A stretch of DNA of 64,000 bases from Acidobacteriota bacterium (lineage in GTDB: Bacteria; Acidobacteriota; Polarisedimenticolia; JAPUKU01): assembly GCA_027295505.1 (NCBI GenBank), contig JAPUKU010000045.1:20586-84585 (forward strand), in the 5' to 3' direction. Positions 6,486 through 43,157 of the stretch are shown piece after piece. Below the pieces are notes generated by a model. That model saw only the letters and a list, made by a program, of their open reading frames with translations. It did no database searches and was not told where the DNA came from. The translations under genes and the position numbers were made by a program. Positions within the stretch are counted from its first letter, which is position 1. Every line of letters starts with the position of its first letter.

Positions 6486-6922
6486 GGCGTCCCCCCCTCG
6501 GCGAGCGCGGAGAGAATCTCCGCTTCCGCCACCAGCGAGCCATCCACGTACGCCCGGCCTTGCATCTTGGCGGCTCGAGAGCGAACCTTGAGCACCTTCA
6601 GCTCCAGACGAAGCTGATCGCCCGGGCGCACCGGTCGGCGGAAGCGAGTCTTGTCAATGCCTGTGAAATAGACGATGCGTCGCTTTTCTTCCGGCAAGCT
6701 GGACAGCAGAAGCACGGCGCCGACCTGGGCCATGGCCTCCACGACGAGCACCCCGGGCATCACCGGATGGCCCGGAAAGTGCCCCTGGAAAAACGGCTCA
6801 TTAAACGATACGGACTTGATCCCCACGGCGCTCTCGCCTTCACGGATTTCAATGATCCGATCCAGGAGCAGAAACGGATAGCGATGGGGCAGGATCTTCT
6901 GAATTTCCTCGACGTTCAGCAC
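6482..6922 (-). CDS. fabZ: 3-hydroxyacyl-ACP dehydratase FabZ
   Basis: 146 aa with hot-dog fold motifs: [36 protein letters not shown]. Confidence 0.95.
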
Positions 6923-6926
6923 GCGA

Positions 6927-7958: not shown

Positions 7959-7969
7959 ACCCGCTTTCC

Positions 7970-8524
7970 TCAGTTGGCCTTGGAGGCGCTCTGTGCGGCG
8001 GCGTTCAGCCTGCTGACGATGAGATCGGTAATGTCCACGCTGGGAGATACAAACGCCACCGCCGCGCGATCGAGGATGAGGGAGTAGCCTGCTTGCCGGC
8101 CCAGCGTTTCAATGACCTCGAGAACTTTTTTCTGAAACTTCTGTTCTATGTCTGAAACCTGCGCCTGGACCGCTCGATTGGCGTCGTCCCGGACACGCTT
8201 GAGCTCGATGCCTTTCTGCTGCATCTCCCGTTCACGCTCGCTGCGGCGGTCCTCGCTCAGGCTGGGCTCCTGCTGCCGGAACATCTCCTGAAGAGCCCTG
8301 AATTCCTCCTCCTTCTTCTGAACCTCGCCACGCTTTGCCTTGGTGAGGGACTCAATCTCAGATCGCATTTCCTTACCGATCTGGCTGAGCTCGAATACTC
8401 GCGCCGGATCGAAAACACCGATCTTCGAGGCCTCACCAGCCTGGGCCAGAATGTCGCTCGATCCGGCCCCTAGCCAGAGTCCTGCCAGCACGGCGGCTGC
8501 CGCACAGGCTTTCGATGGTCTCAT
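7970..8524 (-). CDS. skp: periplasmic chaperone Skp (OmpH)
   Basis: Signal peptide (MRPSKACAAAAVLAGLWLGA) followed by a long coiled-coil, Lys/Glu/Gln-rich region; located immediately downstream of bamA. Start set at the ATG at 8524. Confidence 0.8.
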   Translation of the reverse strand: MRPSKACAAAAVLAGLWLGAGSSDILAQAGEASKIGVFDPARVFELSQIGKEMRSEIESLTKAKRGEVQKKEEEFRALQEMFRQQEPSLSEDRRSEREREMQQKGIELKRVRDDANRAVQAQVSDIEQKFQKKVLEVIETLGRQAGYSLILDRAAVAFVSPSVDITDLIVSRLNAAAQSASKAN

Positions 8525-8585
8525 GAACACCTCCTGCGGGATGGGTAGTTCATCCACCCGCCCAACTATTTAGGATAGCACATGC

Positions 8586-11051
8586 TTAGAAGGAGCGCCC
8601 GATGGAAAACTGCAGCGAGTTTGGATCCTCATTCCCTATTGGGTCAATGACGAACCCATAAATCAGCCGCAGTGGAAACTGGAACACCGGGAGATAGAAA
8701 CGTGCTTCTACGCCGTACGACATCTTGAGGTCGTTCAGGTTGAAGCTGACATCATCGAGATAGGTATTGCCCGCGTCGAAGAAGAAAGCAAGCTGCATCG
8801 GCTGACCGACCGGAATGACATACTCGAGCTGAGCCAGGAGATATTTGTTTCCACCACACTCATCCAGGAACGGCCGGCGCTCCACCGTGGTGATGGGATT
8901 GCCATTTGAGTCCAAAGCAGGGATCAGAAGGTCTCTGAAGAAACGGTCGTCACTCGGATCCGTGGGATCCGGCGTGGCAGCGACGCAGTCGTTGGTGCCG
9001 TCGAGCGCACGAAAACCCACGGGGCTAATGGAACGCGTCTCGAAGGCGCGCGGACCGCGGAGCTCGCCGCCAAGGAAAAACCGATCCGATATCGGCATCA
9101 GACCGTCGCCGAAACGTTCCACCCAGCCAAATTCAGTATGGGTTCTGAAGAACGTCCGCTTGTAGGCTGGAAAGAAGCTGGTGTTGAGAATGCGCGGCTT
9201 GACGAAGGAGTTGTCTCCACCCAGAAAGCCGCCCGCATACTCCACCGTGAAGCGCAGGGAATGCCCCCGGCTGGGCCGGAATGGGTTGTTGACCGTGTTC
9301 AGCAGGTAACTTGAGATGATGCTGCTGGTCACCGAATCACTGGTGGTGAATTCCTGGCCCAGACGCTCTTCGTCGATCTGCAGATCCTCCAGCAGGTAGG
9401 TGGCGCGGATGAACTGAAAGTTGGCGATGCGGCGTCCCAAGGTCAAGCTGAGTCCCGACCCGCTCTGCGTGAAGTCAGTAAATTGGGTCTCGCGACGGAA
9501 TATGCTGAATCCGAAGGTCACTGGCTTGCCGAGAAAGTAAGGCTCCTCGAACGCAATCATGAAACGATCGCTGCGGCCGCCGATTTGCGCAGAGGTGGTG
9601 AGAATCTCTCCCAGTCCAAGAAAGTTCCTCGTCCTGTAAGACGCCGTGAAAAAGCCCCCATCCACGCCACTGTAGCCGCCACCCATCTGGATCTCATTGC
9701 GGCTCTCCTCCCTCCCGTGAACCGTGATATCGACCTTGTTCTCACCTTCAATTGGCTGGATCTCAGGCTCCTGGGTCAGCTGCCAGTAGCCAAGCTGGTT
9801 GATGCGCCGCACACCGATGCGGAACTGTGTCAGGTCGAACACTTCCTGTTCGTTGACTCGAAGCTCCCTTCTGAGAACCTTGTCTCGGGTGGTCGAGTTG
9901 CCGACGAACTCTATGCGGTTAATGAAATAACGCTGATCCTCGTCTATACGGAGGCGGACATCCACGGTTCCGTCGTCGTTGCGCTTCAGCCGCGGAGAGC
10001 TGGAAACGTAGAAATAACCCTTTTGCCCATAGGCGGATTCGATCGACTTGGTGCCCACCTGCATCCGGCTGCCGTTGTAGGTCATGCCCGGGCGCAGAGG
10101 GATGCTAGCGAGAATCTGTTGCTCCGTGAAGACGGTGTTTCCCTCGACGCTCATCTCGCCAACCGTATAGGAATTCCCTTCCTCGATCGGCACCGTAATC
10201 GACAGCCACTTCTTGCTCTTGTGGGGTTCCTCGTGGGGCTTGTCCTCGACCACCTCGACGATGGCCGGTTTGATCTGCACATCGATGTAGCCCCGATCGA
10301 GGTACAGCCGTCGTACCACCTCCAGGTCTTGGTCGAAAATCAGAGGATGATAGGTCGTTCCCCTCTTGAAGAGTTTCCACCAGTGGTGCTCTCTGGTGTT
10401 CTGGAGGGATTTCCTGAGCTTGCGGCTCGAAAACAGGCTGTTCCCCGTGAATTCAATGCTGCGCACACGGGTTTTCACTCCCGGCTCGATCGTGAACACC
10501 ACGGCAACCGTGCCAGGAGAGATTTCCTCAAGCTCACCCCTGACCATCGAATCCATGTGCCCCTTCTCCGCCAGCATGTTGCGCAGATGCTCCTCTGCCT
10601 CTTTGACATCACCATAATCGATGGGCAGACCAATCTTGAACTCGACTTCACGTTCCTTGAGACGATCCTCCATTTGCGAGCGCGTCAGCATCTTGATCTC
10701 ACTGTACTCGACCGAAGTCAGAAGCGGTCTCTCTGTCACATGAAAGATGACGACGATGCCCCGATCACCCGGCCGGGTCTCGACCGAGAGGTCATCGAAC
10801 ATCTTGCGCTCCCACAAGGCCCGGAAATCAGAACGCACACGCTCGGCATCAAAGGTATCCCCCACCCTGAAGGAGAGCAGGTGACGGAACGCCTCCTCGG
10901 AGAGCCGGCTGTTCCCCTCGACGATAATGGCCTCGATGGTCTGGGAGGTCTGGGCCATGGCCCCGTTCGGAAGAAGAAACAACAGGAATGTCAGAAGGCA
11001 GGTGATGCCCAAAAAGTCGCGTCTACGCGTGGGGAGTGCCAGAAAGGGCAT
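8586..11051 (-). CDS. bamA: outer membrane protein assembly factor BamA
   Basis: Signal peptide, five POTRA-like repeats, and a C-terminal 16-strand beta-barrel ending in an aromatic residue (..LQFSIGRSF); about 820 aa. Start set at the ATG at 11051. Confidence 0.9.
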   Translation of the reverse strand: MPFLALPTRRRDFLGITCLLTFLLFLLPNGAMAQTSQTIEAIIVEGNSRLSEEAFRHLLSFRVGDTFDAERVRSDFRALWERKMFDDLSVETRPGDRGIVVIFHVTERPLLTSVEYSEIKMLTRSQMEDRLKEREVEFKIGLPIDYGDVKEAEEHLRNMLAEKGHMDSMVRGELEEISPGTVAVVFTIEPGVKTRVRSIEFTGNSLFSSRKLRKSLQNTREHHWWKLFKRGTTYHPLIFDQDLEVVRRLYLDRGYIDVQIKPAIVEVVEDKPHEEPHKSKKWLSITVPIEEGNSYTVGEMSVEGNTVFTEQQILASIPLRPGMTYNGSRMQVGTKSIESAYGQKGYFYVSSSPRLKRNDDGTVDVRLRIDEDQRYFINRIEFVGNSTTRDKVLRRELRVNEQEVFDLTQFRIGVRRINQLGYWQLTQEPEIQPIEGENKVDITVHGREESRNEIQMGGGYSGVDGGFFTASYRTRNFLGLGEILTTSAQIGGRSDRFMIAFEEPYFLGKPVTFGFSIFRRETQFTDFTQSGSGLSLTLGRRIANFQFIRATYLLEDLQIDEERLGQEFTTSDSVTSSIISSYLLNTVNNPFRPSRGHSLRFTVEYAGGFLGGDNSFVKPRILNTSFFPAYKRTFFRTHTEFGWVERFGDGLMPISDRFFLGGELRGPRAFETRSISPVGFRALDGTNDCVAATPDPTDPSDDRFFRDLLIPALDSNGNPITTVERRPFLDECGGNKYLLAQLEYVIPVGQPMQLAFFFDAGNTYLDDVSFNLNDLKMSYGVEARFYLPVFQFPLRLIYGFVIDPIGNEDPNSLQFSIGRSF

Positions 11052-11105
11052 CGGGGACAGGAACGCCCATGTTTCAGGGGCGCAAATTTTCACGGGCTGG
11101 CCCGC

Positions 11106-20664: not shown

Positions 20665-21900
20665 TCAGGAGCGGGGCGTCGGGGCCAGCGGCCTGGCGGG
20701 GTCGAGTTGTTCACGGCGCAGGAATTCGGCGATCTCCGATTCCTGTTGTTCCCACTGGAACAGGAAGATCACACCGATTTCGTAGCGCGGAGCTGGAGGG
20801 GTCACTTCCAGTTCCTCAACCCGGACCACGCGCGCCTGCACTGTGAGGGTCGCACCACCATCCGAGCTCGTACAGACGATCTGCAGGACCTGTCCGAGAG
20901 GGTACGCGGTGTCACTCTCAAACAACATCCCACTGCGGGATATGTTCTTGGCCTGCAATCCTGAATCGGCGGGACCGGGAGCGACTGAATCCAGCGCCTG
21001 CACGCTGAACTTGCGCCGGCGGGTGTCGAAGCGGATATAGTCGCGCTTCTCACGGAAGAAAACGCTGACCCGGTTCTTGCCTCTTGCCTTGGCCTGATAA
21101 AGTGCCTCAGCAGCGGCCAGAATCAGTTTTTCGCCCACCCCCGCATCCGAGGGGTACTCCGCGATCCCTGCTGACAGCGTCAGGCGGACTGCTTTCCCGG
21201 CGTGCTCGCGGCGCAGGAAGTGCTGCTCAACCGCCGAGCGGATGCGCTCGCCAACCACGTAGGCCCCCATGCGCTCCGTTTCTGGCAACGACACCAGGAA
21301 CTCCTCACCACTCCAGCGTGCCGCCACGTCGATGTCCCGCACCTTGTTCTTGATGAGCACCGCGACCTCCTTGAGCAGCAGATCGGGAACGGCATGGCCG
21401 AACCGTTCACGCAGGTAGCGGAAATTGTCGATGTCAAGGTAAAGCAACGAAAAGACCAGACCGAAGCGCTTGCAGCGCCTGAGCTCGGTACGCAGACATG
21501 TACGGAAGAAATGCTGATTGTACAGGCCCGTTAACCAGTCGTTGCTGGCCGTACGCTGAGCGTGCTCGTACATCCCGAGCTCGATGATCTTGGGGCTCAC
21601 AATTCTGCGGTTGATGTTCATGAAGTAATCGAACACCGCCAAGCGCACCCCGACCGGGCGCCCTGTCTGGCGACGGAGCTGAACATGGTGCCGGAGAATC
21701 GCCTCCCAGTGCTGACGGGCCTCTTTCTGATCGAAAGAGATCTGGGTCAGCGAGAGGAGCAGAGCTGAGTGGGCCGGGATTCCCTTTTCGGCGCAGATGT
21801 GGTCGAGCTCCTCTAGAACGCGGTTCGCGTTGTGCATGTCCTCGTCCAGCAAGTCCAAGAGCTGCTGGCGGATCTGGGCGGGATCGTGGGTTTCAATCAT
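20665..21900 (-). CDS. diguanylate cyclase (GGDEF, SGEEF variant) fused to a C-terminal PilZ domain
   Basis: GGDEF domain with an I-site RDID and an SGEEF signature. C-terminal PilZ motifs (RFDTRRR..., NISRSG), preceded by an unknown N-terminal domain of about 130 aa. Confidence 0.8.
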   Translation of the reverse strand: MIETHDPAQIRQQLLDLLDEDMHNANRVLEELDHICAEKGIPAHSALLLSLTQISFDQKEARQHWEAILRHHVQLRRQTGRPVGVRLAVFDYFMNINRRIVSPKIIELGMYEHAQRTASNDWLTGLYNQHFFRTCLRTELRRCKRFGLVFSLLYLDIDNFRYLRERFGHAVPDLLLKEVAVLIKNKVRDIDVAARWSGEEFLVSLPETERMGAYVVGERIRSAVEQHFLRREHAGKAVRLTLSAGIAEYPSDAGVGEKLILAAAEALYQAKARGKNRVSVFFREKRDYIRFDTRRRKFSVQALDSVAPGPADSGLQAKNISRSGMLFESDTAYPLGQVLQIVCTSSDGGATLTVQARVVRVEELEVTPPAPRYEIGVIFLFQWEQQESEIAEFLRREQLDPARPLAPTPRS

Positions 21901-22121
21901 GGCTGTGGACGCGCGTCTATATTTAATGCGCGCCCAAGCCAGCGTCAAACTCGACAGGATGGCCAGCGTAGGTTTTTTTCCACAGAGTGGTAATTTTTTT
22001 GACAGGGGGCGGTGCCAGGACTATATTAGGTCACGCGCCGTCGTAACCTACGGTGTCTATGGGAGTTGTTCCCACAACCCCGTGGGTTCAGGCGGCCAGC
22101 CCAGGTAGGAGGATGCCAATT

Positions 22122-24185
22122 ATGCCCACCGGTCTCGGAATTCTCAACGTCATCGGCGAAATGCAGGACTTGCGGGGATTCCGCGAGCAGCATTGGGAAG
22201 GCGGCTTCGAGGAATACCTGGATATTGTCCAGAAGCATCCCGAGGTCGCACGCTCCGCGTTCCAGCGCGTCTACGACATGATCCTCGCGAAGGGCACCCG
22301 GGAATACTTCGAGTACAAGAAGAAAATTATCCACTACAACTTCTTCGATGATCCGGACCGTGATGGCAGGGACGCGGTCTACGGCCTCGACATCCCTCTC
22401 ATGAAAATGGTCAACATCTTCAAGGCTGCCGCCAACCGCTACGGCACCGAAAAACGAGTGTTGCTGCTGCACGGTCCGGTCGGCTCGGCGAAGAGCACGA
22501 TTGTGCGCCTGCTTAAGAAGGGTCTCGAGGACTACACGCGCACGCCCGAAGGCGCCCTGTACACGTTTCGCTGGATGCTCGAGGACACCGGCGGCCGCAA
22601 GGCCACCGCCGATATTCATGAGTTTCCGTGCCCCATGTTCGAAGATCCGCTGCACCTCATTCCGTCCGAGAGCCGGCAGAAAGTGCTGGATATGCTCAAC
22701 CACAACCTGCCTCCCGAGCGGCGCGTCGTTGTGGCCGGAGACCTTTGCCCCGCATGCCGGCAATACTTCAAAGAGTTCAACCTGCGCTACAACGGTGATT
22801 GGATCAAGATCATTCAGCACATTCGCGTCCAGCGGCTGACCCTGAGCGAGAAGGACCGCGTGGGCATCGGCACCTTTCAGCCGAAAGACGAAAAGAACCA
22901 GGACTCGACCGAGCTCACCGGCGACATCAATTACCGGAAGATCGCTGAGTACGGATCGGATTCGGACCCGCGGGCGTTCAACTTTGACGGAGAGTTCAAT
23001 GTTGCGAACCGCGGCCTCGTCGAATTCATCGAGGTCCTGAAGCTCGACGTGGCTTTCCTATATGACCTGCTCGGCGCCTCTCAGGAGCACAAGGTCAAGC
23101 CCAAGAAGTTCGCCCAGACCGACATTGATGAGGTCATCATTGGCCACACGAACGAGCCAGAATACCGCCGGCTCCAGAACAATGAGTTCATGGAGGCCCT
23201 GCGTGACCGCACGGTCAAGATTGACGTGCCCTACATCACCAAACTCGACCAGGAGGTTAAGATCTATCTGAAGGACTACTGCCCCGACCGCATTCGTGGC
23301 AAGCACATAGCCCCTCACACCATTGAGATGGCAGCCATGTGGGCAGTCCTCACTCGTCTGGAAGATCCGAAGAAGGCCGACCTGACCCTGCTGCAGAAGC
23401 TCAAGCTGTATAACGGCAAGACACTCCCCGGCTTCACCGAGGACAACGTCAAGGAGCTCAGAAAAGAGGCGCAGCGCGAGGCCATGGAGGGCATTTCGCC
23501 GCGCTACATTCAGGACAAGATTTCCAATGCTCTGGTCTCGGAACGCGGCGACGGATGCGTCAACCCCTTCATGGTGCTGAACGAGCTGGAGAGCGGACTC
23601 CGCCACCACTCCCTGATCAACAGCGAGGACGTGCGCAAGCGTTACCGCGACCTTCTGCAGGTGACCAAGCAGGAGTACGAGGACATCACCAAGAACGAGG
23701 TCCAACGCGCCATTTCGGCCGACGAGGAGTCGATCTCGCGCCTGTGCGGCAACTACATCGACAACATCAAGGCCTACACGCAAAAAGAAAAAGTGCGTAA
23801 CAAGTACACCGGCCAGGACGAGGAGCCGGTTGAGCGCCTGATGCGGTCAATCGAGGAAAAGATCGACATCCCGGAGAATCGCAAGGAGGATTTCCGCCGG
23901 GAGATCATGAACTACATTGGCGCTCTGGCGGTCGAAGGAAAAACGTTCAACTACCGCACGAATGAGCGCCTGCACAAGGCTCTCGAGCTCAAGCTCTTCG
24001 AGGATCAGAAGGATTCGATCAAACTCACCAGCCTGGTCTCCAGTGTCGTCGACCGCGACACCCAGGAGAAGATTGACGTCGTCAAGGCGCGGCTCATCAA
24101 GGATTACGGCTATTGTGAGGTCTGCTCCACCGACGTCCTCAACTACATCGCCAGCATCTTCGCGCGTGGCGACGTGAAGAGCTGA
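22122..24185 (+). CDS. prkA: PrkA-family AAA+ serine protein kinase
   Basis: Collinear with PrkA/YeaG ([24 protein letters not shown]; Walker [12 protein letters not shown]). I preferred the ATG at 22122 because AGGAGG lies 9 nt upstream of it. Confidence 0.9.
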
Positions 24186-24207: not shown

Positions 24208-25310
24208 ATGGCGCTCCGGATCGACCAGGACCATAACCGCTTTCGTCAGATCGTCCGCGGCCGCATCAAGCGTGACCTCAAGAAGTACATCACGCACAGC
24301 GAGCTGATCGGACGTCGCGGCAAAAATCTCGTCAGCATTCCCCTGCCCCAGATCGATATTCCTCATTTCACCTTCTCCCCCCACCAGCGCACAGGCGTCG
24401 GCCAGGGAGAGGGCGAGGTCGGCACCGTGCTCGGTTCTGGTGAGCCGCAGGACGGCACCGGCAAGGCCGGTGATGCTCCCGGCGCACACATCCTGGAGGT
24501 GGATGTCACGCTCGAGGAACTGGCCAGGATTCTTGGAGAGGAACTGGAACTACCCGACATTCAGAATCGCGGCACCAAGAACATCGCCTCCGACAAAGAC
24601 CGTTACACGGGAATTGCCCGCTCGGGCCCCGAATCCCTGCGGCATTTTCGCCGCACGTACCAGCAGGCGCTCAAGCGGCAGATTGCCGCCAACCTGTACG
24701 ATCCCACCAACCCGAAGATCATCCCCATCCGGGAAGATCGCCGATACCGATCCTGGAAGGTGTCCAAGCAGCCGCAGAGCAACGCGGCCATCATTTACAT
24801 GATGGACGTATCCGGCTCCATGGGTGATGAACAGAAAGAGATCGTACGTATTGAATCGTTCTGGATCGACACTTGGCTGCGCTCCCAGTACAAGGGAATC
24901 GACGTGCGCTACATCATCCATGACGCGGAGGCACACGAGGTCGATGAGGAGACATTTTTTCACACTCGCGAGAGCGGCGGCACGGTGATAAGCAGCGCCT
25001 ACAAACTCTCCGAGCAGTTGATCCAGAAGCACTACCCTCCCGGCGAGTGGAACCTGTATCTTTTCCACTTCAGCGATGGTGACAACTGGTCGCAGGGCGA
25101 TACGGAGGAGTGCGTACAGCTCCTGCGTGAACGGCTTCTCGCCGCGGTAAATTTGTTCTGTTACGGCCAGGTAGAAAGCCCCTACGGTACGGGGCAGTTC
25201 CTGGTCGATCTCAAGGACGTTTTCAAGGATGAGGAGAAGGTGGTTCTCTCGCAAATCGAGAACAAAGAGGCCATCTACTCTTCGATCAAGGAATTCCTGG
25301 GGAAGGGTAA

Positions 25311-25314
<4 letters not shown>
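24208..25314 (+). CDS. yeaH: YeaH/YhbH-family protein (DUF444, vWA-like)
   Basis: DUF444 hallmarks and the conserved middle position in the prkA-yeaH-spoVR operon; its stop overlaps the spoVR start in an ATGA arrangement. Confidence 0.85.
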
Positions 25315-26801
<1,487 letters not shown>

Positions 26802-26811
26802 GGCGCGATCC

Positions 26812-28539
26812 ATGAACGAGACCCGCCTCCTGCCGACGCCCCGATCCCTGGTGACTGCGAACCCGCCCCCGGCGGCTCCCGGGTTCGGCAGTCCCTCCGC
26901 GGCGACCCAGACCAAGGGCCGAGAGTACCGCAAGGTCAACACCTGCCGTCTGATCGCTTTCGCGAGCGGCAAGGGTGGGGTGGGCAAGAGCCTGCTGGTG
27001 GCGAATCTTGGCATTCAGCTCGCGCGCCAGGGCCGGCGGGTGACCCTCATTGATTGCGACGTGTTGAGCTCCACCCTCCACTCCTATCTGGGAACCGTGT
27101 GCTCAGGCAGCGGCGTGGATGAGGTTCTGGGTGGTAATTCAACTCCCCTCCGCTCCCTGGCGCGTGACACCTCGGTACCCTACCTGCGCCTAATCTCCGG
27201 ACCACGGAATCGCGCTAGAGCCCTTCCTTCAAGAGAAGTTTTGCAGTCGCTGGCCCTCGAGGCCCGCGAATTGGCCTCTGATTTCGCGATCTTTGACCTG
27301 CCCTCGGGAATGCACCCCTTCAGCCTAGATGTCTTCAGCCTTGCTGACGGCGGCGTGCTAGTGACCACGGCCGAACCGGGGTCTCTGGAGGGCGCTTTCC
27401 ATTTCGTGGAGGAGCTGGGCAAACGCCGTCTCGACGAGATGGAGTCTGACATCCGGTGTGCGGTCGAAGCAACGCTGGGCAGCTCGGCGCTCGAGCGAGG
27501 GACGGCTTCCTGCCTCGACGCGCTGGCCGAGATCGATCCCGGTCTGGTGAACCGGGTCGCCGCCCGCCTCGCCGGGCTTCGCCTGTCTTTCGTCGTGAAC
27601 CAGGTGCGGGCCGATGCCGAGGCTCAGGCAGCTCTCAACCTGCGCAGCCTGTGCCGGCACTACCTGGGGGTGGAAGTGGAGTTTACTGGAGCGGTTGAAT
27701 ACGATCTGTCCGCCTGGCAAGCCACCCGGCAGCGCAAGTCACTTTCACAGAAGTATCCGAATGCCTCGGCCACACGCAGCATCGAGCAGATGGCCGCTCT
27801 CCTCTCCTCGCGCACGGGTCCAGAGCCGGGCTCAGAACCCCGCTGGATACGCCTGGCTGAGCGCACGCACTACCAGATCCTCGAGGTGCCGCCCTCGGCC
27901 TCCCAACGCGACCTGCAGCGCGCCTACGACCGCCTACAGGCAATCGCCTCCCCCGGGATCGAGCAGCTTGGAGGTGCCATCCACAGCGAGAGGGTCAAGG
28001 CGGTGCGCTCGCGGATCGAGAACGCCCACCGCACTCTTGTATTTCTCGAACCCAGGAGGGGATACGACCGCAGCCTCGTCGCGGCCGGCATCCTGCGATC
28101 TGAGGAGTTGCGTGATCTCAGGCTCGAACTGAACGAGCCGCCCCCTCCCAAGCCCGTGGAAGGATCCTCACCCACCAGGACTCCGGACAGGAGCATGGGA
28201 AAAACCAAGAAGCGGCGGGCCGACACGGATGAGTCGCTCGAGGAAGAAGCGGCACCCCCTGCCACCTCCGGCACCCCACTTGCCTACACCGGGGCCGTCC
28301 TGGCAGCCCTGCGGCGTGAGCACGGCCTCAGCCTCGAGGCCATCGGGGCGGTGACCAAGGTGCGGATCATCCACCTGCGCTACCTCGAGGAAGAGCGCTT
28401 TGGGTCCCTGCCAGCGCTCATCTTCCTGAAGGGATTTGTGAGGGAGTACGCCCGCTGCCTGAAGCTCGATCCCGACCGTGTGTGGCAGGATTACCGGACG
28501 CGATTCGAAAACTGGAAGCGCAGCCGCAGCGAGGACTGA
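26812..28539 (+). CDS. ParA/MinD-family P-loop ATPase fused to a degenerate J-like segment and a C-terminal RodZ-type helix-turn-helix
   Basis: Deviant Walker A IAFASGKGGVGKSLLVANLG. Residues about 360-400 read HYQILEVPPSASQRDLQRAYDRLQAI, a J-domain-like helix pair lacking HPD. After a Pro/acidic linker the C-terminus reads LSLEAIGAVTKVRIIHLRYLEEERFGSLPALIFLKGFVREYARCLKLD (an HTH of the RodZ N-terminus / XRE type). Starts 10 nt after the spoVR stop. Confidence 0.7.
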   Translation: MNETRLLPTPRSLVTANPPPAAPGFGSPSAATQTKGREYRKVNTCRLIAFASGKGGVGKSLLVANLGIQLARQGRRVTLIDCDVLSSTLHSYLGTVCSGSGVDEVLGGNSTPLRSLARDTSVPYLRLISGPRNRARALPSREVLQSLALEARELASDFAIFDLPSGMHPFSLDVFSLADGGVLVTTAEPGSLEGAFHFVEELGKRRLDEMESDIRCAVEATLGSSALERGTASCLDALAEIDPGLVNRVAARLAGLRLSFVVNQVRADAEAQAALNLRSLCRHYLGVEVEFTGAVEYDLSAWQATRQRKSLSQKYPNASATRSIEQMAALLSSRTGPEPGSEPRWIRLAERTHYQILEVPPSASQRDLQRAYDRLQAIASPGIEQLGGAIHSERVKAVRSRIENAHRTLVFLEPRRGYDRSLVAAGILRSEELRDLRLELNEPPPPKPVEGSSPTRTPDRSMGKTKKRRADTDESLEEEAAPPATSGTPLAYTGAVLAALRREHGLSLEAIGAVTKVRIIHLRYLEEERFGSLPALIFLKGFVREYARCLKLDPDRVWQDYRTRFENWKRSRSED

Positions 28540-30501: not shown

Positions 30502-33156
30502 CTACTTGTGGATCGTGATGTGGTTCTTTCCTTCGCGCTTGCTCTGGTAGAGGGCCCTGTCGGCGTTCTCTATGAGGACTCCCTTGGTTTCTCCGTTCGA
30601 CACCGTGATCCCGGCGCTGAAGGTGATCTGCAGGGGGGCAGGATTTCTACCAACGCTCGACACCTGCATTCTTTCGACTGCGATGCGCAGCCTCTCGAGT
30701 GATTTCGCCGCCAGAGAAAGCTCCGTTTCCGGATAAATGATAGCGAACTCCTCACCGCCATAGCGGGCCACAACATCGGTGGTACGCACCATGGTCAGCA
30801 ACAACCGGGCGAGGGCCCTCAGCACGATGTCACCGGTTTGATGTCCATACTGGTCGTTGATCGGCTTGAAGTTGTCGAGATCAAAAAGAGTCAGACAGAA
30901 CGGCTTCTTGTAACGCGCGAACCGGTTGATTTCGTAGTCGAGCCGCTCCTGGAAGAACCGGTGATTGTAAAGGCCTGTGAGTCCGTCTCGCAGCGCCAGA
31001 TCCTGGTTCACCTTGGCACGCTCGAGCCTGGACACCACCCTTGCCACCAGTTCCTCCGGCAGGAACGGCTTGGTGACATAATCATCCGCTCCCGCCCGCA
31101 GGGCCTGCACCTTGTCGTCCAGCTGGGTTCGCGCGGTGACGAAGACGACCGGTATGAGCTGCAGCTTCGGATTGGAGCGGATAGTGGACAACAGCTTGCG
31201 ACCGTCCATGTCAGGCAGCATGATGTCGAGGATGATGAGGTCTGGCACGTGATCGCGGACGAAATCCAACGCCTCCGATGCGCTGAAGGCGGAGTAGGTG
31301 TCACAGCCGGCTCGGTTGAGGCTGGCCTTGATGGCCTTCTGCGTGACCTGCTCATCGTCCACCACCATCACCAGGGGACGCTCCCCCGTGCGCACGGCGG
31401 TCTCAGGCACCGCGTGGGTGAACAATGTGTTGCGCAGATGTTTCTCCCGTCCCATGACTCGGGTCGCTTCATACGTCCCCACGCGTAGGCTGGCTGCGAT
31501 CCACTGCAGGCACTCCTGCGCTTCGGACAGAATGCTCTCGGAGCCGATGGGCGGCACGGCTGATTCGAGGAGGTTGTTCATCGCCACCTCGAACAGCTTG
31601 CCGAGAGTCGAGAGCTCCGGGTAACCGCCAATGGGACCGCTGCCTGCAAGGAAATGCGCGGCGCGTTGAATGGTGCGGGCCCGGTCTCGAATGGGCTCCC
31701 GTGGATCGATATTCCCCACAGGTTTCAGGCGGTCGCTGATCTCAGCGATGAATGCCTCCTTCAGGACCTGCGCTTCCTCCGCGGAGAGCTCGCTCAAGCT
31801 CGCTGAGGAAGTCTCCATACTCGGTTCTCGCCGGGCGGCTCCGGTATCCGGCACCTGGATCAGCCCATCACTGCCACAGCTGGCGAGGTGCACTCCACCT
31901 GCTTCCGCCGATTTCGCCCGTTCTAGCGCGTCGCGCGTGGCCGAGAGAAGATCCTGCCGGGTCGAGGCAGTCTCGGGACAACCGGCTACGCCGGACGACA
32001 AAGTGACGCTGGGCAAGTTTGAGCCGCGGATGATCGCATGAACCTTCATCAGCATTCTCTTCATGACGCTCGCGGCCGACACCAGGTTCGTCTGGCACAG
32101 GAGGATCCCGAATTCCCCGCCGGAGAGCCAGGCGGCGAGGTCGGTGCGCCGGACCTGCCCACGAAGTTCCTGACCGACGCGCTGCAGGATCTCGTCCGCA
32201 GCTTCGAAGCCAAAGGCATCGCTGACGCGCTCCAGCTGATCGATGTTGATGAGGGCCACAGCAAATGAGGATTTGTAGCGTTCGTGCCGGGCCAGCTCTG
32301 TGCTCAGGAGTTCGTCAAACGACCGCTTGGTGGCGATGCCGGTGACTGGATCCCGCAGCGCAATTTCCTGAAGCCGGGTGGAGCGTTCGATGCGCGAAGC
32401 CACCCGGGCGACCAACTCGTCGGGATGGAACGGCTTGGTGATGTAGTCGTCGGCCCCGCCCCGAAAAGCATCCAGCTTCTCCTCCAAGCCTTTCCTGGAG
32501 CTCACGAAGACCACCGGAGTCCCCACGTGATAAGGATCGCGGCGGATCCTGCGCACGAGGCGGGGTCCGCGGATGTCGGGCAGATCGACATCCATGATGA
32601 TCAGCGCCGGCCGGTGCGAACGGAGCCGTTCCAGGGCCTCGCGGCCCCCCATGCAGGAAGTGGCCACGAAACCGGCGTTCTCCAGCGCTCCGCAGATCAG
32701 CTTCTGCGAAGTGGGATTACTGTTGATGACCAGGACGTGTCGCGTCGTGTGGTCGGCTTTCGGCGTTATCTTGCGGAGCGCCCTCTGAAGCGGCCCCCCC
32801 AGGTCGTCGATCTTCTCGCGACTCCACTGCATGGGTGAGTCGCTCTCTGAGAGAACGCGCAGGATGCGTCGAACCTTCTTCGCCAGGGCAACCGTCGGCC
32901 TCAGGGTCTGCTCTGCGATGCTACCGCTCAGATCCTTGAGAGAAGCTCCGAGCTCGAACAGCTCGGTGCGGTGCCCTCCGGCCATGATCTCGAGCTCGGC
33001 CCCGACGCGGTACAAGGCGTCCAGGCAAGTGGAAGGAATGATCGACGAGGCAGGGATATCGTGGAGAAGATTCGCAGCCTGCCCCGCCAGGTCCAGAGTC
33101 TGGGTGGCGGTAGGTGCCATCCCCACTAATCTTGTCGAATGACCTTCATTCGTCAA
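30502..33156 (-). CDS. multidomain c-di-GMP signalling protein with tandem duplicated HPt-like-REC-GGDEF modules (first GGDEF degenerate)
   Basis: Two REC domains (DVDLPDIRG..DYITKPF and DIMLPDMDG..DYVTKPF). Two GGDEF domains: the first reads RRTD..LSGGEFGIL (GGEF, one acidic residue missing), the second RTTD..RYGGEEFAII (canonical). HPt-like segments precede each REC (..GGHRTELFELGASL.. and ..AAHFLAGSGPIGG..). Confidence 0.8.
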   Translation of the reverse strand: MTNEGHSTRLVGMAPTATQTLDLAGQAANLLHDIPASSIIPSTCLDALYRVGAELEIMAGGHRTELFELGASLKDLSGSIAEQTLRPTVALAKKVRRILRVLSESDSPMQWSREKIDDLGGPLQRALRKITPKADHTTRHVLVINSNPTSQKLICGALENAGFVATSCMGGREALERLRSHRPALIIMDVDLPDIRGPRLVRRIRRDPYHVGTPVVFVSSRKGLEEKLDAFRGGADDYITKPFHPDELVARVASRIERSTRLQEIALRDPVTGIATKRSFDELLSTELARHERYKSSFAVALINIDQLERVSDAFGFEAADEILQRVGQELRGQVRRTDLAAWLSGGEFGILLCQTNLVSAASVMKRMLMKVHAIIRGSNLPSVTLSSGVAGCPETASTRQDLLSATRDALERAKSAEAGGVHLASCGSDGLIQVPDTGAARREPSMETSSASLSELSAEEAQVLKEAFIAEISDRLKPVGNIDPREPIRDRARTIQRAAHFLAGSGPIGGYPELSTLGKLFEVAMNNLLESAVPPIGSESILSEAQECLQWIAASLRVGTYEATRVMGREKHLRNTLFTHAVPETAVRTGERPLVMVVDDEQVTQKAIKASLNRAGCDTYSAFSASEALDFVRDHVPDLIILDIMLPDMDGRKLLSTIRSNPKLQLIPVVFVTARTQLDDKVQALRAGADDYVTKPFLPEELVARVVSRLERAKVNQDLALRDGLTGLYNHRFFQERLDYEINRFARYKKPFCLTLFDLDNFKPINDQYGHQTGDIVLRALARLLLTMVRTTDVVARYGGEEFAIIYPETELSLAAKSLERLRIAVERMQVSSVGRNPAPLQITFSAGITVSNGETKGVLIENADRALYQSKREGKNHITIHK

Positions 33157-36656: not shown

Positions 36657-38021
36657 TTAGCGGGGAATATTGATGCCGTATGATTTGATCTTGCGGTGCA
36701 GATGACTGCGTTCGAGCTTGAGGACGCGGGCCGCACGCGTGATGTTCCAGCTGTTGTCTTCCAGCGTGCGCTGGATCAGCTCGCGCTCGAAGCGCTCCTT
36801 GCCTTCCCGGAGCGATAGCGGCCGGCCACTATTGCCACCGGCCCGGGCCGGATCTTCTCCACGCAGGCCGGCCGGAAGATCGGATATACCGATCTCGTCG
36901 TGCGGCACCATGATGACGAGCCGTTCGACAACGTTCTTGAGCTCACGCACATTTCCTGGCCAGCGATATGCCTTGAGCGCCGCCAGAGCCGGCGCCGAGA
37001 AATCTTTCGGCCGGCGGCCATATTCCTGGGCGAACTCCCCGGCAAAGTGTTCGGCCAGCAGGGGCACATCACTGACCCGGTCGCGGAGCGACGGCACCTG
37101 GATGGGAATGACCGCCAGGCGAAAGTAGAGATCCTCGCGGAAGCGCCCCTGGTGAATCTCCTCCTGCAGATCCTTGTTGGTGGCCGTGAGCACGCGCACG
37201 TCCACCTGTATGGAGGATGCGCCTCCGACGGGCTCGAACTTCTGCTCCTGCAGCACCCTGAGAACCTTGGCCTGTGTGCGCAGGCTCATGTCCGCTATCT
37301 CATCCAGAAACAGGGTACCGCTGTCCGCCAGCTCGAACTTCCCCTTCTTGTCGTGCACCGCACCGGTGAAGGAGCCTTTGACGTGGCCGAACAGCTCGCT
37401 TTCGATCAGCTCTTCCGGGATGGCGGCGCAGTTCATTTCTACGAACGCTTCCTCGGCACGCAGGCTGGTACCGTGAATCATGCGAGCCACGAGCTCCTTG
37501 CCGGTCCCGTTCTCGCCAAAGATGAGCACACGTCCGTTCGTGGGCGAGGCCCGCCGGATCTCCTCCCTCAATCTCTCGATCTTGCTGCTCTTGCCGATGA
37601 GGGTATGCCGGCGTTGCAGTTGCTCACGCAGCACGCGATTGCGCGCCTCGAGGAGACGCTGCTTGAGGGCGTTGCGCAGCACGAGCACGGTCTTTTCGAG
37701 TGACAGAGGTTTCTCAACGAAATCAAACGCACCGAGCTTGGTCGCGCGCACCGCCGTCTCGATATTACCGTGTCCCGACATCATGACCACGGCCGCATCC
37801 ATGCCTCGCTGCCGTAGTTCACGAAGCGTCTCGAGCCCGTCCATTTTGGGCAGCCATACATCCAGCAGGACCGCATCGCACGGTTTGCGCTCGTAAGCTT
37901 CCAGGCACTGCTCGCCGCTCTCCGCAACTTCCACCTTGTAGCCCTCATCGAGCAAAACACCGCGCAGCGATGAGCGCACTCCCGCTTCATCATCAACAAT
38001 TAGGATGCGCTCGCCTGCCAT
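36657..38021 (-). CDS. ntrX: sigma54-dependent response regulator, NtrX/NtrC type (REC-AAA-Fis HTH)
   Basis: REC (ILIVDDE..DVWLPKMDG), a sigma54-interaction AAA+ domain (GENGTGKE, GAFTGA-like, ESELFGH), and a C-terminal HTH (ITRAARVLKLERSHLHRKIKSYGI). Confidence 0.85.
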   Translation of the reverse strand: MAGERILIVDDEAGVRSSLRGVLLDEGYKVEVAESGEQCLEAYERKPCDAVLLDVWLPKMDGLETLRELRQRGMDAAVVMMSGHGNIETAVRATKLGAFDFVEKPLSLEKTVLVLRNALKQRLLEARNRVLREQLQRRHTLIGKSSKIERLREEIRRASPTNGRVLIFGENGTGKELVARMIHGTSLRAEEAFVEMNCAAIPEELIESELFGHVKGSFTGAVHDKKGKFELADSGTLFLDEIADMSLRTQAKVLRVLQEQKFEPVGGASSIQVDVRVLTATNKDLQEEIHQGRFREDLYFRLAVIPIQVPSLRDRVSDVPLLAEHFAGEFAQEYGRRPKDFSAPALAALKAYRWPGNVRELKNVVERLVIMVPHDEIGISDLPAGLRGEDPARAGGNSGRPLSLREGKERFERELIQRTLEDNSWNITRAARVLKLERSHLHRKIKSYGINIPR

Positions 38022-38024
38022 CCG

Positions 38025-40244
38025 TCAGCCCTGCACCGGGAGATCGATGACGAACGTCGTGCCCTGCGGCACGTTGGCGCGCACGTGGATGGCTCCATTG
38101 TGGTCGGAAATGATGCGATCGACGATTGCCAGACCGAGACCGGTCCCGCGGTTCTTGGTGGAGAAGTAGGGCATGAACAGGCGTTCACGATCTTCTGGAG
38201 GAATACCGGGGCCGGTGTCGCTGACCTCAACCCGAACCACCCGAGGGTCCTTCAGGTAGCAGGTACCGATGAGCACCTGGCCCTGTCCGTTCATGGCCTC
38301 GATGGCGTTGTCGATCAGGTTGATGAACACTCGGCGCATCTGCTCAGGATCGACGTGCACGGCGGGAGTCTCACCATTGTCTCGGCGGACGATCGAAAGG
38401 TCTGTGCTGCGCCCATTGTAATGAGCCAGCGCCTCATCGATCACAAGGCCGAGATCGACCGGTACCGGCTGCACATGGGGCATTTGCGCAAAACGCGTGA
38501 AGGCGTCGACGAGGCTCTTGAGCGAATTGACCTCACGCACGATGCTGGCACTTCCTTCCTCGACGATCTCACCCAGCCGGGGACTCTTCTCGCGCCACTT
38601 CTTGCGAATGCGCTCCGCCGACAGCTGGATGGGCGTGAGCGGGTTCTTGATTTCATGTGCGATGCGGTGTGCGACTTCCCGCCAGGCGGCGAGGCGCTGG
38701 CCCTTGATGAGATCGGTGAGATCTTCCAGCACGATGAGCATACCCAGGTAACTGCCCTGGCCGTCATCGAGCTGAGAGAGGTGGGCAGCCGCAGTAACCG
38801 TTCGCCCCCCACTGACGAAGCGCAGCTCCCGCTCCAGCGAGGTCTTGGCTCCCGACTGAACGCTCTCGATGGCTTCGCCAAGGCCTTTCAGATCGGCACT
38901 TCCCTGCTGCAGGATCTCCGCCGGTTTGTTGAGGATGGCTCCGCGGCGCGGCAGTCCCAGAATGCGGTGTGCAGCGCGATTGATGGTGCTCACCCTTCCC
39001 TGGCGGTCCAGCGAGATGACGCCCGTGGTGATGTTTTCGAGAAGGATCTCGATGTAGCGGCGGCGCTCCTCGAGGGCCTGGTTGATTTCGTTGAGTTCGC
39101 GGCTGCGCTGGTCAATGGTTTCCCGGTTGCCCCGCAGCTCCTCGGTCATGGCGTTGAATGAATCCACCAGGATCCCGAGCTCGTCTCCGGCTTCCACTTC
39201 AACCTTGTAGTTGAGGTTGCCCGAAGAGATTTCACGCGTGCCGTGAGCAAGCATCTGAATGGGCACCGTGATGCGCTTGGACAGGTACAGGCCGATCCAA
39301 GTCACCGAGAATAGGATGATCAGGGTCACGAGCGCGAACGCGAACGTGTATAGGCGCTGGATGTTTGACTTCTGGGCTTTGTTCTGGCGGTAGTTCTCGC
39401 TCGCACGGCTGATGCGCGAAGTTAAACCCATCAGATCCCGCGAAACCCGGTAGCCGGCCACTAGCACGCCCTGGGCCGGCTCGCCGGGCTTGAGAGAGGC
39501 GATGGGCACGCCATAGCGCACCAGTTGTGAACCGCTATGCGAATTGATCCACCCAAACGGCTCCCCCGCCAGGGCTTTGTCGATCAGGTTCTGGGGAAGC
39601 TGCTCGATCGAGTCCACCGGGATACGCGGATCCAACACAACCAGTGGCTCTCCTCCACCCACGTAGACACCGATGAAGTCGAGGCCATACTGCTTGAGAC
39701 GGCGCTTGAGCCAGCGCCCGAGATAGCGGCGGTTCTCTCCCAAGAGGCCGTTTTCCGCCGCCAGCCTGCTTGTACGCTGTGCGAAGTGGGCTGCGCGCTG
39801 CCTGACGTCGTCGTAGTAGGCGTCCACGACCTCCTGCGAGTACTGGGTGACCTCATCCACAGGGGTGCTGAACCACTTGTCCACGCTCGACTGGATGAGA
39901 TGGAGGGCGGCCAGGAATATCAGCAGGGACGGCAGCAGCCACAGGGCCAGCAGTGTGAACACAACCTTCGTCTTGAACTTGGCGCCGAGAATGTTGCGCT
40001 TGCGCTCCACCAGCAGCTTGATGAGGTTGCGGAAAAGGATGAACAGGAAGGTGAGTATGAGGATGGCATTGGTAATGCCCAGAAACGACAGCAGCACCGA
40101 GTTTGTGAGGTAGGGCCAGCTAAAATCCTCGGTCTTCTGGAGGAAAAAGTAGATGGCCGAAACAACCAACACCAGAATCGCCACTCCGAGCAGGAGCAGG
40201 CGATCGGTGTTCAGTCGCGGACGGCTACGGCTGGATCGGCTCAT
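38025..40244 (-). CDS. ntrY: sensor histidine kinase, NtrY type
   Basis: Multi-TM N-terminus, HAMP, PAS, an H-box ([20 protein letters not shown]) and a HATPase_c domain ([33 protein letters not shown]); lies upstream of ntrX. Confidence 0.85.
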   Translation of the reverse strand: [739 protein letters not shown]

Positions 40245-42140: not shown

Positions 42141-43157
42141 ATGAGCAAAACGAACCCAGAGTCCCACTCCCTCAAGGAGAAGTTAGCCTTCCTGCGGCAG
42201 GAGATCGAGTCACTAGAGCGTCACGCCGAGGGCCTTTACGCCTCGGGTGGCGCCCCGGGAGAGGATGTTGATTTGGCCGAGTCCCTTGGCCGGGTCCGCG
42301 ACGGAGTTCGTCAGATATTGCAGACCACCAGCGCCCCAACCGCGCTGAATCTGCTCCTGATTCAAGCATCCCACTTTGGGGAGAGGGCTGTCCTCTTTCT
42401 CTCCCGCAAGGGGAACCTGTGGGCATGGTCCGGCCTTGGCAGAGGGGGTGTCAAGCTGGGGATTTCGAGCCTGACACTGGATCCGGAAGAGTCTCCCCTG
42501 CTCACTTCGGCGCTGCAATCACAGCGGTGCGAGAGCGGCACCGGCCCCGAACCCTGGGAGGCACGGCTGGGAGAGCCCAGTGCAGGCGGTCGCGTCGCCG
42601 TGCCGATCCCGGGCCGCGAGCGCTGCAGCGGATTGCTGTGGTTCGACACCGGCCCCCTGGCCACCCCGGGTGCCGTGGAGGCTGTCGAGTGCCTAGCCAC
42701 CACCGCCGGGGCCGCACTCGAGATGATCGCCCTGAGGCGGGCGCCCACTCCCCCCGGCGGCGGCCGGGTCACAGCTGATGAGAGCGCGATCAGGTCCCCG
42801 CTCCCCTACTCGGTGTTCGAGGGGCAGGAAGCCGGCGAGCAGGCACCGGCCTCGAGCACCTCCGGTAACGCACCCGATCCGAGCCTGGGAGGACAGCATG
42901 AGGATGCCCGGAGGCTGGCCCGCTTGCTCATCTCCGAGATCAGGCTCTACAACGAGGAGAAGGTCGCGCTGGGTAGAAAGAGCCGGGACCTGTGCACCCG
43001 GCTGCGTAACGACATCAATCGTAGCCGGCAGACCTACGAGGAGCGGATCTCCCAGGAGGTCCGCGACGCCACCGACTACTTCCAGGCGGAACTGATCAAG
43101 ACCCTGGCTGACGGCGACGCCTCCCTCCTGGGCCCTGTCACCGCGGCCGCGAGCTGA
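42141..43157 (+). CDS. hypothetical protein (N-terminal coiled-coil, central GAF-like region, conserved C-terminal helical segment)
   Basis: 338 aa with no assignable family; the C-terminus reads ARLLISEIRLYNEEKVALGRKSRDLCTRLRNDINRSRQTYEERI. A TTGACA box lies about 60 nt upstream. Confidence 0.45.
   Translation: MSKTNPESHSLKEKLAFLRQEIESLERHAEGLYASGGAPGEDVDLAESLGRVRDGVRQILQTTSAPTALNLLLIQASHFGERAVLFLSRKGNLWAWSGLGRGGVKLGISSLTLDPEESPLLTSALQSQRCESGTGPEPWEARLGEPSAGGRVAVPIPGRERCSGLLWFDTGPLATPGAVEAVECLATTAGAALEMIALRRAPTPPGGGRVTADESAIRSPLPYSVFEGQEAGEQAPASSTSGNAPDPSLGGQHEDARRLARLLISEIRLYNEEKVALGRKSRDLCTRLRNDINRSRQTYEERISQEVRDATDYFQAELIKTLADGDASLLGPVTAAAS

Follow-up and report, generated by a model that had tools for sequence, protein, structure and literature searches.

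The 64,000-nucleotide (nt) stretch analysed here, referred to below as the window, is a part of contig JAPUKU010000045.1 of an Acidobacteriota bacterium (assembly GCA_027295505.1, positions 20,586 to 84,585 of the forward strand). Immediately downstream of its prkA-yeaH-spoVR genes lies an open reading frame (ORF, window positions 26812-28539, forward strand) encoding a protein of 575 amino acids (aa), in which a MinD/FlhG-like ATPase domain, a domain with the J-domain fold and a RodZ-type helix-turn-helix (HTH) domain are fused. The protein is a cytoplasmic three-domain, fused form of a conserved uncharacterised module. Judging from sequence and gene order, its gene is a genuine fourth cistron of the operon, translationally coupled to spoVR, and its product might serve as an adaptor of the PrkA-YeaH-SpoVR complex.

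Operon structure and linkage to spoVR

The operon starts with prkA (22053-24185, forward strand), encoding an AAA+ protein of the PrkA family (Pfam AAA_PrkA, E-value 2.3e-89; PrkA, 1.9e-88), which is 85-89% identical to its orthologues in four of the loci compared here (L001, L002, L168 and L170). Since orthologues are 687-690 aa long, the real start of prkA is probably about 23 codons downstream of the called one. Two more genes follow on the same strand: yeaH/yhbH (24208-25314; Pfam DUF444, 3.3e-87; NCBIfam NF003711, 621 bits with a cut-off of 388) and spoVR/ycgB (25311-26801; Pfam SpoVR, 3.7e-138, and SpoVR_C), which overlaps yeaH by 4 nt. The first-pass annotation, made from the sequence alone, described the ORF as a co-oriented gene appended to this triad 10 nt after the spoVR stop, and these coordinates were confirmed. 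The junction (26799-26814) consists of the TGA stop codon of spoVR (26799-26801), a 10-nt spacer and the ATG start codon, with a GAGG sequence (26800-26803) that overlaps the stop and is located 8 nt before the ATG. Across the four genes the intergenic gaps are thus 22, -4 and 10 nt. No terminator-like site was detected at any junction from prkA through the ATPase-J-HTH gene, and the sole candidate on the forward strand between positions 21500 and 29200 is a weak 5-bp stem within the ORF itself (27573-27585). The coding status of the ORF is not in doubt, because its GC content at third codon positions (GC3) is 0.77, full-length homologues at 27% to 99% identity exist, and the folded domains are conserved while the linkers vary. 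Compared with the PrkA/YeaG-YeaH-YcgB(SpoVR) module, the window has the canonical triad in the usual order and in one operon, and its lineage adds a fourth, apparently translationally coupled gene. No fourth component was mentioned in the literature examined on the module.

In all 10 informative loci the gene is located directly 3' of spoVR and in the same orientation, with 34-87% identity of the encoded proteins. These loci comprise a close clade (the window, L001, L002, L003, L007 and L088; 57-87%) and a deep group (L168-L171; 34-36%). All 10 junctions are of the coupling type, with the two genes either 10 nt apart or overlapping by 4 nt (ATGA) or 1 nt. In the six close-clade loci the spacer is exactly 10 nt long and differs in sequence, the start codon being ATG, GTG or TTG. 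Among the deep relatives, proteins P0127, P0131 and P0132 (34-36% identity) are encoded directly after spoVR as well, two of the genes sharing 4 nt and 1 nt with it, respectively. The genomes of the relatives in the window's lineage are labelled Acidobacteriota by NCBI and represent three independent assemblies, and all prkA-linked members fell into one clade of a crude neighbour-joining tree. Over the span from the window to the deep relatives, identity is about 85% for PrkA, about 62-66% for SpoVR and about 35% for the ATPase-J-HTH protein. Because the arrangement holds in every informative locus down to 34-36% identity and its members form a single clade, the linkage to spoVR is, by these comparisons, old and specific, and it is maintained together with the predicted translational coupling. 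The first-pass annotation had named beforehand a lack of conservation of this linkage in related genomes as the result that would speak for a chance adjacency, and the opposite was found.

The downstream neighbours of the gene differ between loci (4HBT/MatE, FTCD or GCS2-FTCD), which means that the linkage on the 5' side survived rearrangement. An explanation by shallow synteny only, conceivable from the first five loci, where PrkA is 87-89% identical, was rejected, since the relatives at 34-36% identity are arranged alike.

Domain composition of the fusion protein

The composition proposed earlier (ATPase, J-like segment, HTH_25) was supported by Pfam for all three parts, the DnaJ match being below its cut-off. 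The ATPase domain (aa 46-335, positions 26947-27816) matched CbiA, ParA and AAA_31 at aa 46-300 with scores above the Pfam cut-offs. Its Walker A motif SGKGGVGKS (aa 52-60, positions 26965-26991), with the signature lysine K54 and the P-loop lysine K59, is invariant in the alignment of the close clade, and further conserved motifs are IDCDV (D81 and D83), the Walker B motif FDLPSG (D162) and VVNQVR (N263). The domain possesses sequence features of the ParA/MinD superfamily: a deviant Walker A, the Walker A' and B aspartates and an adenine motif of the NxxR/NK type. In the AlphaFold2 (AF2) model the predicted local distance difference test score (pLDDT) of this domain is about 80-95, and the predicted template-modelling score of the whole model is 0.74. 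Foldseek found FlhG as the best structural match (4rz2 and 4rz3; E-value 1e-12, template-modelling (TM) score per target 0.80-0.86), FlhG, FleN and MinD ranging together from 1e-12 to 1e-9 with TM scores per target of 0.74-0.86; Soj was also matched. From the motifs only, we infer that the window protein dimerises in an ATP-dependent manner and hydrolyses ATP.

The fold, the signature lysine of the deviant Walker A and the Walker A' and B aspartates are common to this domain and to MinD, FlhG and FleN, but identity to them is about 20%, an extra helical segment of about 55 aa is inserted at aa ~200-255, and the protein continues with the J-like and HTH domains instead. In contrast to MinD and FlhG, there is no C-terminal amphipathic membrane-targeting helix at the end of the ATPase domain, where the J-like domain comes next; the strongest amphipathic 14-mers of the protein fall within the folded HTH and J helices. 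The NCBIfam models minD_bact and minD_arch reached 57 and 52 bits, with cut-offs of 212.9 and 201.75, respectively, and neither min genes (minC/minE) nor flagellar genes were found in the 64-kb window.

The segment following the ATPase (aa 350-425, positions 27859-28086) was earlier described as resembling helices I-II of a J-domain and lacking the His-Pro-Asp (HPD) tripeptide. The absence of HPD was confirmed, its equivalent in the window being S380-P381-G382 (positions 27949-27957), but the likeness is not restricted to two helices. The Pfam DnaJ match at aa 352-419 spans positions 1-63 of the 63-position profile with 19.1 bits, which is below the gathering cut-off of 27.8, and such sub-threshold matches recur in both clades. 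A profile of the segment built from 10 family members matched J-domains in the Protein Data Bank (PDB) over their full length (DNAJB12 2ctp, E-value 3e-8; E. coli DnaJ 1bqz, 2e-6), and the AF2 model has helices at 353-356, 365-376, 392-410 and 412-424. Thus, by profile and model, the segment is a complete homologue of the four-helix J-domain, into which about 6 residues are inserted between helices II and III. The first position of HPD is occupied by histidine in 2 of 89 J-like domains of the family and in none of the prkA-linked members; the replacements seen are SPG, GPE, DPD, DAE, QPD and others. All prkA-linked members keep the domain, with the clade signature AYRTL[IV]FLExRxxYD, which contains no histidine. 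The HPD tripeptide is needed for the stimulation of Hsp70 ATPase, and HPD-less proteins such as Pam16/Tim16 are called J-like. The same term is appropriate here: the domain shares the four-helix fold with J-domain proteins (DnaJ/Hsp40), whereas the family-wide loss of HPD and the insertion between helices II and III set it apart from canonical co-chaperones.

The C-terminal part (aa 489-575 plus stop codon, positions 28276-28539) contains the RodZ-type HTH_25 domain and a following helix. As the first-pass annotation had suggested from the likeness to the RodZ N-terminus, Pfam HTH_25 matched aa 497-557 (E-value 1.5e-16, 60.4 bits with a cut-off of 24.6). The only solved relatives of the domain are cytoplasmic domains of RodZ (4gqm, 7e-8; 3fym, 2e-4; 2wus_R, 2e-3), the last one crystallised with MreB. 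The window protein is nevertheless not a RodZ, since it has no transmembrane segment (maximum Kyte-Doolittle mean of a 19-mer, 1.14) and no Pfam match to DUF4115; it scored 30 bits with the NCBIfam RodZ model (cut-off 375). What it shares with RodZ is the HTH_25 cytoplasmic domain, which is N-terminal in RodZ and C-terminal here, while the single transmembrane helix and the periplasmic DUF4115 domain of RodZ are missing. Residues F538 and F542 align with Y53 and Y57 of Thermotoga maritima RodZ, and these aromatic positions are invariant in the prkA-linked clade. In the work of van den Ent and colleagues from 2010, Y53 and Y57 reportedly contact MreB. The net charge of the HTH region is +4, and all prkA-linked members keep the domain. 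As RodZ binds MreB (PMC3599482), MreB may be considered, by analogy, a candidate partner of this domain.

Identity within the close clade is 58-88% for the ATPase, 64-88% for the J-like domain and 69-93% for the HTH domain, the latter being the most conserved, while most of the sequence of the linker and the N-terminal extension is unconserved (19-41% identity beyond the two closest relatives). This pattern indicates purifying selection on the three folded domains, with the tethers free to vary. The N-terminal extension (aa 1-45, positions 26812-26946) consists of a terminal peptide and a disordered tether, with pLDDT below 50 at aa 1-42 and 0-67% identity across the clade. The peptide, M-[NS]-[ED]-x-R-[LP]-L-P (aa 1-8, positions 26812-26835), is also present in L001, L002, L003, L007 and L088, is absent from romX-linked and deep prkA-linked relatives, being thus confined to the close clade, and is carried by an unconserved, disordered stretch of 30-80 residues. 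As a candidate short linear motif, it may bind a partner or regulate the ATPase in cis, the latter being comparable with the N-terminal activator helix of FlhG. In L003 the start assigned by the gene caller is about 200 nt too late. The second tether (aa 426-488, positions 28087-28275) includes a post-J segment and a disordered linker rich in proline, acidic and basic residues, which at aa ~441-488 has pLDDT below 50, is 19-29% identical beyond the closest relatives and varies highly in length.

Distribution of the family and its split form in Myxococcus

An exhaustive profile search yielded a family of 2,236 representatives at E-value <=1e-30. Among the best 150 of these 2,236 representatives, 76 have all three domains and 25 have the ATPase and the HTH, and about 15 clusters with the complete three-domain layout came out of a word-index search. 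Scanning species-representative genomes gave 117 relatives, of which 80 were kept; nearly all of them come from metagenome-assembled genomes (MAGs) labelled Kofleriaceae, Haliangiales, Myxococcales or similar. In the alignment, the window protein has the three domains in the same order as the family and shares with it the insertions in the ATPase and J-like domains. The motif KGGxGK[ST] is kept in the clade of the window and in 29 of the 76 full-architecture representatives among the best 150, so that some groups within it are probably pseudo-ATPases, or bind ATP without hydrolysing it. With the window protein as a single query, the metagenome scan gave no matches; when it was repeated with the clade alignment, two short close-clade loci (L088 and L089) were added, and the other matches were generic ParA-like ATPases without prkA or romX neighbours.

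The protein in its entirety is not covered by any Pfam or NCBIfam model. All NCBIfam models score below their cut-offs with every member, including the domain model for the KGGVGR variant at 44-48 bits with a cut-off of 90. In the literature searched, no description of the family was found beyond the mention of one M. xanthus member, MXAN_3349, counted as a J-domain protein, and neither the role of a fourth gene in the PrkA operon nor the romX linkage described below was found reported. The earlier suggestion of an undescribed-looking fusion needs revision in that this fusion is no isolated case but a member of a large, mostly myxococcotal family. Since none of its domains is new in kind and databases already contain the family, it is not categorically new.

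In the Myxococcota-type loci (L004-L086, L087 and L090), the gene is accompanied by an 88-aa ORF, about 90% identical between MAGs. Of the 83 informative loci, 74 have this ORF within 300 nt of the gene, 71 of them downstream on the same strand and 3 divergently upstream. This ORF encodes RomX (PDB 8zna, E-value 1.6e-27). [quoted passage not shown] A selA gene is usually found upstream and an rluD-like gene downstream in these loci. No paper on the genes flanking romX was found.

The romX gene of M. xanthus is MXAN_3350, and it adjoins MXAN_3349 (WP_011553383.1, 579 aa), which is listed among the J-domain proteins of this bacterium and bound both DnaK1 and DnaK2 in co-immunoprecipitation and split-luciferase assays (PMC11019930). 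Its J sequence has the same layout as that of the window protein, with APD at the HPD position, and a fragment of it aligns with family members over 68-71 aa at 35-47% identity. A search with the 71-aa J sequence of MXAN_3349 returned only a 42-aa partial protein, and a seeded alignment later found the orthologues. In Myxococcus and Pyxidicoccus these carry the J-like domain at the start and HTH_25 at the end, with no ATPase. The ATPase is encoded separately: in the complete genome of Myxococcus sp. SDU36 (CP077414.1; L087, 6051-8350), a gene for a 317-aa ParA-like protein with an intact Walker A motif (GGKGGIGKS) and the same helical insertion overlaps the J-HTH_25 gene by 4 nt (ATGA), the order being selA, the ParA-like and J-HTH genes, romX and the rluD-like gene. 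This ATPase is 32% identical to that of the window over 275 aa. Judging from synteny and locus-tag order, its counterpart in M. xanthus would be MXAN_3348, for which no description was found in the literature. Domains, their order, the insertions in the ATPase and J-like domains, the disordered linker and the C-terminal HTH_25 are thus the same in the Myxococcus pair and in the window protein; the differences are two ATGA-overlapping genes versus one, a much longer linker in Myxococcus, APD versus SPG, and romX/selA/rluD versus prkA-yeaH-spoVR as genomic partners. Such a fusion/fission pair is strong evidence that the ATPase and J-HTH parts work together.

For the window, a direct partnership with RomX was discarded, because no stand-alone romX adjoins the gene. 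A gene 13.6 kb downstream (42141-43157, forward strand) encodes a 338-aa protein with a RomX-like three-helix C-terminus (aa 255-318; PDB 8zna, E-value 1.5e-7). Its N-terminal ~200 aa had no family match, apart from a faint one to LAMTOR2/roadblock (E-value 0.39), and its single-sequence model has a pLDDT of 47. A syntenic orthologue with 52% identity is present in L002 (15690-16721). In both loci the RomX-like gene is located 7-14 kb downstream of the ATPase-J-HTH gene and adjoins lpxC, a DUF4390 gene, a PAS histidine kinase and a sigma-54 regulator; it may be an echo of the romX linkage in Myxococcota.

Possible function and alternative explanations

The preferred interpretation, which builds on analogies and which we hold with slightly better than even confidence, is that the window protein is an ATP-dependent dimerising adaptor of the PrkA-YeaH-SpoVR starvation/stress complex. 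As in MinD, FlhG, FleN and ParA, ATP binding would drive the formation of a sandwich dimer and thereby double the J-like and HTH arms, which would make the protein a bivalent adaptor gated by nucleotide and not an enzyme. Its HTH_25 arm would attach to a partner in the cytoskeleton or at the surface, MreB being the candidate by homology to RodZ, and the J-like arm would bind a protein partner, possibly DnaK, as suggested by the M. xanthus data, without stimulating its ATPase, as HPD is lacking. Since its production is coupled firmly to that of SpoVR, the protein would most likely tether, localise or gate PrkA (an AAA+ protein), YeaH and SpoVR in this lineage. Recruitment or regulation of the three proteins by a positional or cytoskeletal ATPase had been proposed in the first-pass annotation, and as such is a reasonable inference; overall, that interpretation is partly supported. 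What did not survive is the idea that positioning driven by ATP hydrolysis lies at the conserved core of what the prkA-linked members do: the deep relatives have arginine or threonine instead of the P-loop lysine, and the loss of this lysine in sister lineages suggests scaffolding, not a hydrolysis cycle, as the conserved function.

Several observations weigh against the adaptor interpretation. The deep prkA-linked relatives carry GKGGVGRS, GRGGAGRT or GKGGVGTS, and, together with the limited retention of KGGxGK[ST] in the family, this means that a hydrolysis cycle is not a conserved requirement. Neither an amphipathic helix of the membrane-targeting type nor a ParA-style partner gene was found. 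Loss of HPD precludes canonical Hsp70 activation by the J-like domain, the equivalent of T. maritima RodZ K36 is His or Tyr here, and the binding of DnaK by MXAN_3349 could be mere client binding via its long disordered linker. MreB, DnaK and PrkA are named as partners by analogy only. In addition, all the linked genomes are MAGs with taxon labels given by their submitters, and within the fetched flanks of the Myxococcota-type loci prkA, yeaH and spoVR were not found (0 of about 79). As the wider family lives without a prkA neighbour, its core role is independent of PrkA.

The last point is also the basis of the most serious alternative, to which we assign a distinctly lower, though appreciable, probability: the protein may be a regulatory hitch-hiker, which retains an ancestral job in polarity or the cytoskeleton and shares the starvation or stationary-phase expression of the operon without interacting with PrkA, YeaH or SpoVR. 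The prevalence of romX neighbours in two orientations in the absence of prkA, the RomX-like-domain gene remaining 7-14 kb away in the window and L002, and an evolution far faster than that of the operon partners (about 35% identity versus 85% for PrkA) are all consistent with this. Shared expression alone, however, accounts poorly for a linkage kept in all 10 loci to 34-36% identity, with coupling junctions and an invariant 10-nt spacer of varying sequence; this pattern suggests selection for stoichiometric co-production over mere co-regulation, and the prkA-linked clade has acquired a J-like signature of its own. That the ORF is merely a chance reading frame or a decayed, functionless fusion is effectively refuted: high-GC DNA yields many long spurious, overlapping ORFs, but here the GC3, the homologues at 27-99% identity, the domain-wise conservation, the intact motifs and the confident AF2 domains all argue for a functional gene.

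Two other roles can be derived from the individual domains, and both seem improbable. The protein could act like FleN, as an antagonist of an AAA+ ATPase (PrkA or a nearby sigma-54 activator), and/or as a DNA-binding operon regulator of the XRE type. FleN is among the best structural matches, including FleN with the AAA+ domain of FleQ (7ejw, 8p53), PrkA is a clade-III AAA+ protein (PMC13001217), and sigma-54 activators are encoded within 10 kb; this likeness, however, is that of the generic MinD fold, FlhG and MinD scoring equal to or above FleN. For the XRE variant, the weak matches to HTH_19, HTH_31 and HTH_3 in relatives and the charge of the HTH have to be set against HTH_25 being by far the best HTH model, its solved relatives being only RodZ, which binds MreB and not DNA (PMC3599482); no operator-like repeat was noticed, though no search was aimed at one. 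A shade less probable again is a specialised Hsp70 co-chaperone, whose J-like domain would bring DnaK to PrkA, as an AAA+ machine, or to the substrates of PrkA, much like the cooperation of DnaK/DnaJ with ClpB, while the ATPase and HTH domains serve for targeting. The true homology of the J-like domain to J-domains by profile, the binding of DnaK1 and DnaK2 by MXAN_3349 (PMC11019930) and the AAA+ pore loops of PrkA (PMC13001217) would fit such a role, but the histidine of HPD is missing in 87 of 89 J-like domains of the family and in all prkA-linked members, and the Pfam DnaJ score remains below the cut-off.

Neighbouring genes

Upstream of prkA, a sigma-70-like promoter candidate (TTGACA-17-TATATT, 11 of 12 matches; 21999-22027, forward strand) was found by consensus match only, the count of such sites in the region being not above that in shuffled sequence. 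The gene divergent from prkA (20665-21948, reverse strand) encodes a GGDEF-PilZ protein (Pfam GGDEF, 7e-39; PilZ, 1.3e-9), and its orthologues with 68-74% identity occupy the equivalent position in L001 (1846-3081) and L002 (658-1914). It is a possible regulatory partner of the operon and only a putative member of it, and its position hints at an input of cyclic di-GMP (c-di-GMP). Genes of c-di-GMP and sigma-54 signalling are unusually dense around the operon: an 884-aa protein with two receiver-domain matches, two GGDEF matches and a weak VpsR-like match at its N-terminus is encoded at 30502-33156 (reverse strand), a sigma-54 response regulator at 36657-38021 and a PAS-HAMP histidine kinase at 38025-40244.

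In most prkA-linked loci, genes of GCS2 (glutamate-cysteine ligase family 2 / carboxylate-amine ligase) and/or FTCD (formiminotransferase) are located 3' on the same strand (L168 5705-8045; L170 5528-7839; L169 2489-3877; L172 1702-3081; L002 8715-9662; L003 4369-5316), which suggests an extended block tied to amino-acid metabolism. This block was lost in the window and L001, where a convergent 4HBT thioesterase gene and a MatE gene are present instead. Another part of the window (5706-11093, reverse strand) contains an ordinary outer-membrane/lipid A cluster of lpxA, fabZ, lpxD, skp/ompH and bamA, which means that the host is a diderm.

Significance

The PrkA/YeaG-YeaH-SpoVR/YcgB system is widespread and has been tied to starvation, sporulation and stress for decades, while its mechanism is not agreed upon. 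Its three genes are strongly cofit and usually form one operon (bioRxiv 10.1101/072470). The activity of PrkA, a clade-III AAA+ protein, is unsettled, and in a 2026 study the Bacillus anthracis protein showed no kinase activity and no protease activity (PMC13001217). Testable hypotheses for this problem are offered by a lineage-specific, coupled fourth protein whose parts can be recognised as interaction modules: a nucleotide switch that would dimerise, a J-like domain, and an HTH of the RodZ type that possibly binds MreB. The romX linkage and the split form in Myxococcus also draw attention to two uncharacterised genes beside a core polarity gene of a model organism.

A wider generalisation, which we regard as rather unlikely but worth stating, is that the module is an unrecognised adaptor that connects different machines with the cell-polarity system or the cytoskeleton formed by MreB: it would work with RomX, RomR and MglA in Myxococcota, and as a fourth subunit or regulator of PrkA-YeaH-SpoVR in Acidobacteria. 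MglA itself contacts MreB. If this is true, the adaptor would give the PrkA module a subcellular address, a connection to Hsp70, or both, and the PrkA system would act at a defined cellular location and not as a diffuse kinase or AAA+ enzyme.

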